The translations under genes and the position numbers were made by a program. 22,041 nucleotides of DNA, from the NCBI GenBank assembly GCA_021325135.1, contig JAJPHT010000017.1, positions 1 through 22,041 on the forward strand, written 5' to 3'. The stretch comes from Pseudomonadota bacterium (lineage in GTDB: Archaea > Thermoplasmatota > SW-10-69-26 > JACQPN01 > JAJPHT01). Shown piece by piece: positions 14,062-17,644 of the stretch. Numbering within the stretch: position 1 is the stretch's first letter; each line of letters begins with the position of its first letter. The notes under the pieces were generated by a model. The model worked only from the letters and a program-made list of their open reading frames with translations, made no database searches and was not told where the DNA came from.

Positions 14062-14139
14062 GGCGAGGCTGTTACCCTTCCTCGGGGAGGGGTCGCCTTT
14101 CGCTGCGCTCTAACCCTTCGACGGCGTTGGGGGTCGCGC

Positions 14140-14502
14140 ATGAAGCTCCGCACCCTCGTCCTGCCGATGCTGATCGCCGTCACCCTCACGGCGTGCCTTT
14201 TCCCCACGGCCCTCGCCGCCTCGTCGTGCTCCCGGTCCGGGTCCGCGCTGCAGTTCTCCCTCAGTTGCGGCATGAGCGGCACGTGCACCGACCCGAACCT
14301 CTGCATCCTCACGGTCACATGCACCGCGACCTTCCTGGGCGTCGCCACCGGCACCTGCGGCGGCGGGGCCATGATCTGCCTCCTCCTCGTGTGCGAGGGG
14401 CAGGCCACGCTGCCCGTCCTGGGCGGCGCCTCCTGGAGCACCTCCTGCTCCGTGAGCGGGGTCAGCGTGGAGGCCGAGACGCTCTCCTGCAGCGTCAGCT
14501 GA
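14140..14502 (+). CDS. Secreted (or LTAC-lipoprotein) Cys/Ser/Thr-rich protein, 120 aa
   Basis: Signal peptide MKLRTLVLPMLIAVTLTACLFPTALA; ten further Cys in an alternating beta-strand pattern. Confidence 0.72.
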   Translation: MKLRTLVLPMLIAVTLTACLFPTALAASSCSRSGSALQFSLSCGMSGTCTDPNLCILTVTCTATFLGVATGTCGGGAMICLLLVCEGQATLPVLGGASWSTSCSVSGVSVEAETLSCSVS

Positions 14503-16387: not shown

Positions 16388-16588
16388 ATGGCGAAGGGAA
16401 AGGAAGCAGCGAAGCCCAAGAAGGGCGCGGCCGGCAAGCGCGGCCTCTACGAGGTCAAGGGAACGCAGATCGTGCGCAAGCGGAAGGCCTGCCCCAAGTG
16501 CGGCCCCGGCGTTTTCCTCGCCGAGCACAAGGACCGCGTGTCCTGCGGCAACTGCGGGTACACGGAATTCAAGGCCAAGGCCGCGTAA
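16388..16588 (+). CDS. rps27ae: 30S ribosomal protein S27ae
   Basis: [28 protein letters not shown]. Confidence 0.96.
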
Positions 16589-16687
16589 GCGGCCTGCGTT
16601 GAATTCCGCGCGGACGGAGTGTCGCCGAGCGCAGCGAGGCGACGAGGCTCCGTCCAGCGCCGAATTCAAGGCCAAGGCCGCGTAAGC
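16563..16687 (+). repeat. Gene-end duplication cassette: 26-bp direct repeat, inverted copy and central hairpin
   Basis: GAATTCAAGGCCAAGGCCGCGTAAGC at 16565-16590 and 16662-16687; imperfect inverted copy at 16589-16608; hairpin 16608-16660 capped by GA-GCGCAGC-GA. Confidence 0.9.
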
Positions 16688-16698
16688 CCCTGCCTTCG

Positions 16699-16727
16699 GG
16701 CCCTGCGATGGGCCTTCTTTTTTTCTT
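16699..16727 (+). terminator. Putative terminator of the rpoE'-rps27ae operon (short hairpin plus T-tract)
   Basis: GGCCC-TGCGAT-GGGCC followed by TTCTTTTTTTCTT, the longest T-run seen in the window. Confidence 0.7.
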
Positions 16728-17509: not shown

Positions 17510-17582
17510 AGTGGATCCGTCCAGGCCCGCACCGGCAGGGAGGGTCGAGACGGGCCTGCGAGCGAAGCGAGTGGGTCCGTCC
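17510..17582. repeat. Direct plus inverted partial duplication of the tRNA-Pro 3' end
   Basis: AGTGGATCCGTCC (17510-17522) vs AGTGGGTCCGTCC (17570-17582). ACGGGCCTGC (17550-17559) pairs with 17571-17580 around GA-GCGAAGC-GA. Confidence 0.6.
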
Positions 17583-17644
17583 GGATTTGAACCGGAGTCA
17601 AGTGGTCCCGAACCGCCAAGGATACCAAGCTACCCCACGGACCC
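17572..17644 (-). tRNA. tRNA-Pro(CGG), intronless, CCA not encoded
   Basis: Minus strand: acceptor GGGTCCG/CGGACCC; TGGGGTAGCTTGGTATCCT D-arm typical of archaeal tRNA-Pro; loop TT-CGG-GA (anticodon 17608-17610); T-arm TCCGG-TTCAAAT-CCGGA; discriminator A. Confidence 0.95.

Follow-up and report, generated by a model that had tools for sequence, protein, structure and literature searches.

Inverted triplications, in which a segment is present three times with the middle copy inverted, are known from several settings: tandem inversion duplication (TID) in Salmonella and DUP-TRP/INV-DUP rearrangements in humans generate them by fold-back or template switching. In yeast, ODIRA begins with a hairpin-capped duplex that replicates to an inverted dimer, and homologous integration of the dimer yields the inverted triplication (PMC4689423). 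The cassette described here, which lies at the 3' end of the archaeal gene rps27ae, resembles ODIRA, TID and DUP-TRP products in that it holds a single interval in triplicate, with the second of the copies inverted, and in that its junctions are hairpin-forming inverted repeats. Unlike the products of ODIRA, its unit measures 13-54 nt across the class rather than kilobases, a length at which an internal replication origin is implausible. Moreover, unlike both ODIRA and TID, the second junction hairpin of the cassette is missing from the parent site and is often a dispersed repeat, and such cassettes recur at gene termini and persist over speciation.

The cassette also invites comparison with small mobile elements. 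WHO elements of yeasts reportedly insert into the end of a conserved gene, bring or keep a working end, and leave the old copy downstream; similarly, in the cassette the end of a conserved gene is kept working and a second copy of that end lies downstream, but the cassette encodes no endonuclease, has an insert of only 71 nt, includes hairpins and an inverted copy, and in the genome under study has two identical ends. Like MITEs and REP/REPIN sequences, the cassettes are small, protein-less, hairpin-forming and located at gene ends, and one of their hairpin families is multi-copy and lineage-restricted; they differ from those elements in that their outer arms copy the target, the duplication is long and variable in length, and the target is also copied in inverted orientation. 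Finally, GC clusters of yeast mitochondria are small, GC-rich, palindromic mobile units with fast turnover and unit merging, are exchanged between species by recombination in conserved flanks, and carry 2-3-nt flanking repeats (AG or ACT) with no inverted or long direct target copy (PMC4478555). The cassettes share with GC clusters the character of small palindromic units and are set apart by their long direct and inverted target copies.

The window analysed here (22,041 nt) is the entire contig C9 of a 3.77-Mb metagenome-assembled genome (MAG), coded G000, of a soil archaeon of the Thermoplasmatota (72% G+C, 94% complete, 51 contigs, 5.6% contamination). Comparisons within the genus involve the sister species G002 and the congeners G001, G003 and G004. 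An earlier first-pass annotation of the window, made from its letters, had drawn attention to the rps27ae gene end as the footprint of an insertion process. The analysis below indicates that the rps27ae cassette is genuine and conserved, and that it belongs to a recurrent class whose geometry points to fold-back copying at DNA mini-hairpins. To the fuller proposal, that the feature is a micro inverted triplication produced at the DNA level by fold-back copying at stable GNA/GNNA mini-hairpins, with portable hairpin modules, we give an even chance.

Anatomy of the rps27ae cassette

The gene rps27ae closes a gene block of the usual archaeal kind, which also contains rpoE', spt4, a DUF359-like gene and rps24e (names read off ORF translations). 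Five elements make up the cassette at its end, in the following order: E1, the functional gene end; H1, a mini-hairpin that carries the stop codon; E', where the gene end is repeated in inverted orientation; H2, another hairpin; and E2, which repeats the gene end directly. Coordinates are collected in Table 1. A repeat search of the window confirmed that E1 and E2 form an exact 26-nt direct repeat at a spacing of 97 nt, and the second copy is indeed followed, as the first-pass annotation had described, by a hairpin and T-run, which are probably the end of the operon transcript. Exact direct repeats of such length at spacings of 30-400 nt number a few dozen genome-wide and mostly fall within repetitive coding sequence.

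Table 1. Features of the rps27ae locus (window positions) and cassettes at other loci of G000 (contig handles)
Feature	Location	Strand	Details
rps27ae (ribosomal protein S27a type) CDS	16388-16588	+	ORF call; Pfam PF01599, E 1.3e-19; stop TAA 16586-16588
E1, direct-repeat copy 1	16565-16590	+	last 24 nt of rps27ae including stop, plus 2 nt; 26/26 identical to E2
H1, native mini-hairpin	16579-16594	+	6-bp stem, GTAA loop carrying stop codon; RNA/DNA folds
E', imperfect inverted gene-end copy	16589-16607	+	internal deletion relative to E1; pairs with 16564-16584
H2, 53-nt hairpin	16608-16660	+	three nested stems, tandem G-A brackets, GCA triloop; private to rps27ae locus
E2, direct-repeat copy 2	16662-16687	+	non-coding; runs on into native downstream DNA
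Terminator-like hairpin, then T-run	16698-16725	+	downstream of E2
Ferredoxin-domain gene cassette	C19		repeat 26 nt
TFS cassette	C15 (G000:C15:198120-198215)		repeat 17 nt
aRF1 cassette	C31		repeat 35 nt
AAA ATPase cassette	C18		repeat 40 nt
Drg-like GTPase cassette	C17		
Ribosomal P1 cassette	C23		
GatB-domain gene cassette	C42		
Thiolase cassette	C33		
Two tRNA 3' end cassettes	C3, C46		
Two gene-start cassettes	C15:212k, C2:43k		layout inverted

The insert between E1 and E2 is 71 nt long (16591-16661) and holds neither an endonuclease nor any other ORF. It is single copy in G000, and within the genus its only other copy is at the orthologous locus; a weak match on contig C24 lies in a coding region, is confined to the surroundings of the loop motif, and was set aside as chance. 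Inverted pairs and folds support the earlier description of an insert that opens with an imperfect inverted gene end, with the stop codon in a GTAA loop, and folding likewise recovers a GNA hairpin after the inverted copy. Specifically, H2 has an outer stem GGACGGAG/CTCCGTCC and an inner stem GTCGCC/GGCGAC, and is capped by the loop GAGCGCAGCGA at 16627-16637.

One extended imperfect palindrome spans 16589-16683, with the loop of H2 at its centre, and E' is therefore able to pair with either E1 or E2. The predicted folds take up both options: the minimum-energy RNA fold contains E1:E' plus H2 (z -4.4 against shuffles), and the DNA fold contains the stop hairpin plus a long E':H2:E2 hairpin (z against shuffles of -6.0 for the plus and -5.0 for the minus strand). 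In a search of the window against Rfam at the gathering score, the sole match was one tRNA at 847-921, and none fell on the cassette.

Recurrence at gene and tRNA ends

A genome-wide scan of G000 for direct repeats that enclose an inverted copy returned at least 12 further loci with the same order of elements: gene end as E1, H1 containing or adjoining the stop codon, E', H2 and E2 (Table 1; genes assigned by Pfam). The arrangement of direct copy, inverted copy and GNA hairpin noted in the first-pass annotation for one gene is found, in other words, at many gene and tRNA ends. The genes concerned include housekeeping genes, and the annotation's own ground for refutation, a layout restricted to one locus, does not hold. 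The accompanying suggestion that 3' ends are targeted holds for these gene and tRNA ends but not for two cassettes situated at gene starts. Direct repeats, 13-54 nt long, flank every insert, and the host gene is intact in every cassette, in agreement with the earlier statement that the host is spared.

The three copies within a cassette are closely matched in extent. In 17 cassettes parsed manually, the length of E' tracks that of the direct repeat's target portion, with a Spearman coefficient of 0.88 and a mean length ratio of 0.86, and E' ends where E2 begins, mirrored about H2. Since E' is about as long as the direct repeat, the cassettes are micro inverted triplications and not a target duplication enclosing an unrelated palindrome; E1, E' and E2 repeat a single interval, with E' in the opposite orientation, which is what defines an inverted triplication.

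Cassettes also occur in other members of the genus. In G004 the Drg-like gene carries one with a perfect 54-nt repeat, and in G002 the AAA ATPase gene carries a smaller, different cassette. The TFS cassette of G002 is orthologous to that of G000 and has another H2: between the G002 copy (L125, G002:C68) and that of G000, E1, H1, E' and E2 are nearly unchanged, including the difference between CGG TGA in E1 and CGA TAG in E2. This swap of H2 between sister species suggests that the H2 slot turns over or accepts nested insertions.

As the source of these observations, fortuitous resemblance or faulty assembly can be given almost no credence. Repeats and palindromes can confuse assemblers, the MAG is fragmented (51 contigs) with 5.6% contamination, and the G002 contig ends about 45 nt past its rps27ae cassette; in G000, however, the cassette lies mid-contig, an independent MAG of another species has the orthologous cassette with compensatory stem substitutions, a dozen analogous loci exist, and an exact 26-nt repeat is not expected by chance.

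Hairpin caps and portable modules

Loops of the type GNA or GNNA closed by C-G confer exceptional stability on single-stranded DNA. On the strand that reads the gene into E1, by our reading, H1 has a C-G-closed GNA or GNNA loop in about 11 of 12 cassettes. H2 differs from locus to locus. The loop motif GAGCGNAGCGA had been put forward as a signature of the class; a scan of the genome found 46 copies, where about 16 would be expected from base composition by our estimate, and only 7 of the 46 have perfect flanking stems. Other caps occur as well, and GAGCGNAGCGA is one among several GNA/GNNA caps rather than a hallmark of the class.

One H2 module, a 48-nt hairpin family designated H2-A, is dispersed. 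G000 has 7 copies of it and G002 at least 4, and the loci that carry it are not orthologous; the G002 sites corresponding to the C17 and C33 genes, which carry H2-A cassettes in G000, are empty. The H2-A pattern found no match in 39 other relatives or in a viral contig collection. All nine copies examined lie between E' and E2 in the same orientation. The outer stem and internal loop of the family are invariant, and its inner stem exists in five versions, each perfectly self-complementary. H2 modules are portable, with H2-A dispersed and the H2 of rps27ae private to its locus.

Comparison with known mobile elements

Profile searches of G000 for four enzyme families gave no match: Y1/HUH transposases (PF01797, RAYT), for which 6 control genomes were matched and G000 is 94% complete; reverse transcriptase (PF00078), which was matched in controls; and Cas1 (PF01867) and TnpB (PF07282), both searched with positive controls. 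The responsible enzyme had been noted as absent from the window, and for these four families the statement now extends to the whole G000 assembly.

Several known types of element were considered and set aside. A MITE does not account for the insert, which is single copy, has outer inverted arms that are target sequence, and is flanked by a duplication of 13-54 nt rather than a short or fixed one. REP/REPIN sequences mobilised by RAYT are disfavoured by the lack of a Y1 transposase match in G000, and an IS200/IS605-derived palindrome by the lack of a TnpA/TnpB match together with the presence of long direct repeats. No reverse transcriptase, which a SINE-like, DGR or retron insertion would require, was matched in G000, and E1/E2 differences are not adenine-specific as would be the case for a DGR. 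Integration of the Cas1 type (CRISPR- or casposon-like) was dismissed given the lack of a Cas1 match and the variable repeat length, and a homing element of the WHO type given that no endonuclease ORF fits into 71 nt. By inspection, the core-site order does not suit an integron attC site; a bulge-helix-bulge intron is incompatible with exon ends that are direct repeats rather than complementary, which makes the helix impossible; and a known structured RNA found no support in Rfam, with no match on the cassette. To our knowledge, no mobile element known or found described accounts for the cassette, and no tested mobile-element family fits the class.

A miniature transposable element is nevertheless an alternative to be weighed. 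Its enzyme, supplied perhaps by a plasmid or virus missing from the assembly, would make wide staggered cuts that yield long target duplications differing in length, and the inverted copy would arise during repair. It would account for the direct repeats at every insert and for a module, H2-A, that is dispersed, lineage-restricted and found at non-orthologous sites in two species; moreover, with G000 at 94% completeness, the enzyme gene could be missing from the assembly. We judge it unlikely, in that a repeat length ranging from 13 to 54 nt is unlike a fixed stagger, the inverted target copy always covers the same interval as the repeat, the H2 of rps27ae is single copy, H2-A does not occur in the viral contig collection, and the four enzyme families had no match in G000. 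The lack of a match instead favours host replication or repair synthesis that turns at stable mini-hairpins and takes hairpin modules along.

Age and maintenance of the rps27ae cassette

The rps27ae locus was compared over 40 relatives, in which the gene ends were read, and through scans of GTDB and JGI. Two of the metagenomic sequences, L063 and L068, repeat those of G004 and G003 and were not counted as extra lineages. At every locus compared the closest relative is G002 (87-92% identity), which carries an orthologous rps27ae cassette with about 17% sequence change from that of G000; the GTDB and JGI scans for additional filled sites returned G002 only. Empty sites, which the first-pass annotation had proposed to look for in close strains, were found: the site is empty in the congeners G001, G003 and G004 and in the metagenomic lineages L066 and L067, and no gene-end repeat was seen in L064 and L065, which are more distant. 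In several of the lineages with an empty site, a T-rich run comes directly after the stop hairpin.

Where G003, G004 and L066 have the empty site, the gene already ends in H1, with its 6-bp stem and the stop codon in a GTAA loop; H2 is absent from empty sites. The stop-codon hairpin, previously assigned to the insert, therefore belongs to the target. The rest of the cassette was most simply acquired by the ancestor that G000 and G002 share; insertion rather than deletion is the parsimonious reading of the few genomes available.

Although the two gene-end copies of G000 are identical, the perfect duplicate does not signal a recent event. The insert is older than the split from a sister diverged by about 12%, and the identity of E1 and E2 therefore reflects later homogenisation or re-copying. 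Consistent with this, both copies in G000 share a GCC codon private to G000, all other lineages having GCG, while the copies in G002 differ; E2 of G000 was therefore renewed or homogenised after the split. Homogenisation probably proceeds via the alternative pairing of E' with E1 or E2.

The stems of the cassette have been maintained over the same period. Between G000 and G002 the outer stem of H2 is the same and the inner stem different, E' is fuller in G002, and the consensus fold of the two has 40 predicted pairs, of which 5 show compensatory change (both sides altered) and none is broken. Such conservation raises the alternative that the cassette is a selected RNA structure, a functional 3'-UTR element with transcript-stabilising or protein-binding hairpins whose repeats are by-products of selection for pairing. 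Under this alternative, the GA-bracketed mini-hairpin might be a K-loop-like site, and the competing pairings E1:E' and E':E2 would couple structure to translation termination. In keeping with such a role, the cassette lies between the stop codon and the T-run, stems are kept over speciation by compensatory changes, the inner stems of H2-A covary, H2-A is sense-oriented in 8/8 3'-end cassettes examined, and the RNA fold has a z of -4.4. The alternative is nonetheless improbable: tRNA genes are followed by the layout too, and gene starts have it in inverted form; with transcription as the reference, both loop orientations are represented in co-directional gaps; the mismatches of E' are, by our reading, mostly transversions or indels and not G-U-compatible; selection for pairing leaves an exact 26-54-nt direct copy unexplained; no Rfam family was matched; and most relatives do without the cassette. 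The RNA and DNA readings are compatible, in that a cassette made at the DNA level can later be kept for a role in RNA.

Differences between the copies

Two features of the copies bear on how they arose. Firstly, E' is only 80-85% complementary where E1 equals E2 (the C18, C19 and rps27ae cassettes). As E2 equals E1 in young cassettes, E2 cannot simply have been copied from the present E'. The opposite holds at C17, where E1:E' is a near-perfect palindrome and E2 has diverged. The mismatch between E' and E2 can be explained, albeit post hoc, if changes in the shared arm made the palindrome less toxic or if conversion took place later.

Secondly, in young cassettes each of the seven sense-codon differences between E1 and E2 affects a third position, and in four cases one stop codon is replaced by another; in the rps27ae cassette of G002, E2 differs from E1 at 5 positions, all of them third-codon or stop-to-stop. 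This pattern would result from recombination that exchanges functional alleles, or from change restricted to the functional copy. It is also what would be seen if a WHO-like homing cassette, comprising E1-H1-E'-H2, spread between lineages by homologous recombination, with the gene body and the resident gene end as homology arms, such that E1 is the donor allele and the resident end becomes E2, the recipient allele. Differences that are solely synonymous or stop-to-stop in the rps27ae cassette of G002 (5/5) and in those of C19, TFS, C31, C18 and the G004 Drg-like gene accord with such spread, as does the finding that E2 of G002 has states found as live alleles in other lineages. Third-position G-C transversions are typical of functional-allele divergence in GC-rich genomes, and they make up 4 of the 7 sense-codon differences. 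Homing of this kind is nevertheless quite improbable. A 71-nt insert offers no endonuclease or ORF, E1 and E2 of G000 are identical down to a common private substitution, and the copy that looks native varies by locus (E1 at C19; E2 at TFS and the G004 Drg-like gene). Furthermore, ordinary allelic recombination of the gene body in a cassette-bearing lineage would yield the same pattern, and homing accounts for spread but not for the origin of E' or of the hairpins. For the fold-back model, the third-position and stop-to-stop differences are unpredicted, and they hint at allelic exchange or at selection on E2.

A proposed fold-back model

Cassette geometry is consistent with the hairpin-primed or template-switching process suggested in the first-pass annotation. 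In the model favoured here, a DNA 3' end pointing away from the gene would fold back on a very stable GNA/GNNA mini-hairpin at the gene end and copy that end backwards, giving E'. Synthesis would turn again at a second hairpin module, H2, and copy forwards to give E2, after which it would rejoin the original template. A formally equivalent route would be homologous integration of a target copy hairpin-capped at both ends (a 'dog-bone'). The gene survives because E1 keeps the stop codon. The cassette would then be transcribed as 3' UTR ahead of the T-run, and it has outlasted a speciation, its stems kept paired and its copies re-homogenised.

The source of H2 sets the model apart from established schemes. 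As H2 is absent from empty sites, a simple double snap-back at pre-existing palindromes, as in TID or ODIRA, is insufficient. The 3' end of H2 matches the sequence upstream of E1 at 61 of 168 positions, against 50.4 in controls (P ~0.04), a marginal microhomology that serves as a weak lead only.

A broader proposal, which we advance tentatively and consider somewhat doubtful, is that such mini-hairpins constitute a form of archaeal mobile DNA that moves without a transposase, via fold-back priming or hairpin capping, with each insertion writing an inverted and a direct copy of its target; the rps27ae cassette would be an old, maintained member. If the model is right, DNA synthesis turns round at very stable mini-hairpins situated at gene ends, which would first generate and then carry target-copying cassettes, and repeats could spread in compact genomes without a transposase while sparing the host gene. 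The 'inverted repeats' of such an element would be made from its target, leaving essential genes intact, and archaeal repeats with conserved loops but differing stems would find an explanation. Events on this micro scale would also be linked to the fold-back amplification models of bacteria, yeast and humans. In practical terms, the position of the cassettes after highly conserved genes and tRNAs could make them useful for marking strains.

Related sequences in the window and beyond

Several further sequences touch on the cassette class. On the minus strand of the window, positions 17520-17644 hold a degenerate cassette behind tRNA-Pro, with the complement of the loop GAGCGAAGCGA, an imperfect inverted tRNA end and, about 35 nt on, a direct copy matching at 12/14 nt. 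The arm of this degenerate cassette shares GGACGGA with the outer stem of the rps27ae H2; derivation of that stem from the tRNA-Pro 3' end was considered, and the shared stretch is too short to decide the matter. At 14085-14140, GAGCGCAGCGA occurs on the minus strand, immediately ahead of the plus-strand signal-peptide ORF 14140-14502, with GGGGTCGC repeated on both sides of the loop motif; this may be a decayed gene-start cassette.

Elsewhere in G000, a dispersed repeat upstream of TFS (G000:C15:197600-197760; L073:1-160) has copies at the ends of C13, C14, C25, C31, C37 and C42 and probably breaks the assembly; loop-motif hairpins at C13:174 and C14:164 adjoin it. A second TFS paralogue, 86% identical, is located at G000:C28:1158-1475 (L129) and is without a cassette. 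The last codons of the conserved Drg-like GTPase gene on C17 lie within a near-perfect palindrome (G000:C17:45590-45680; L072:591-681) that extends over about 43 bp, with 38 bp perfect and 5 bp more beyond them, and the synonymous codons of its coding arm are unusually AT-rich for G000.

Lastly, the DNA downstream of rps27ae in the distant relatives G010 and G007 and in a metagenome contig (L036/L037/L065) contains arrays of perfect hairpins with CTGCGG loops, which suggests that GNA-capped hairpins behind the rps27ae operon are widespread in the family.
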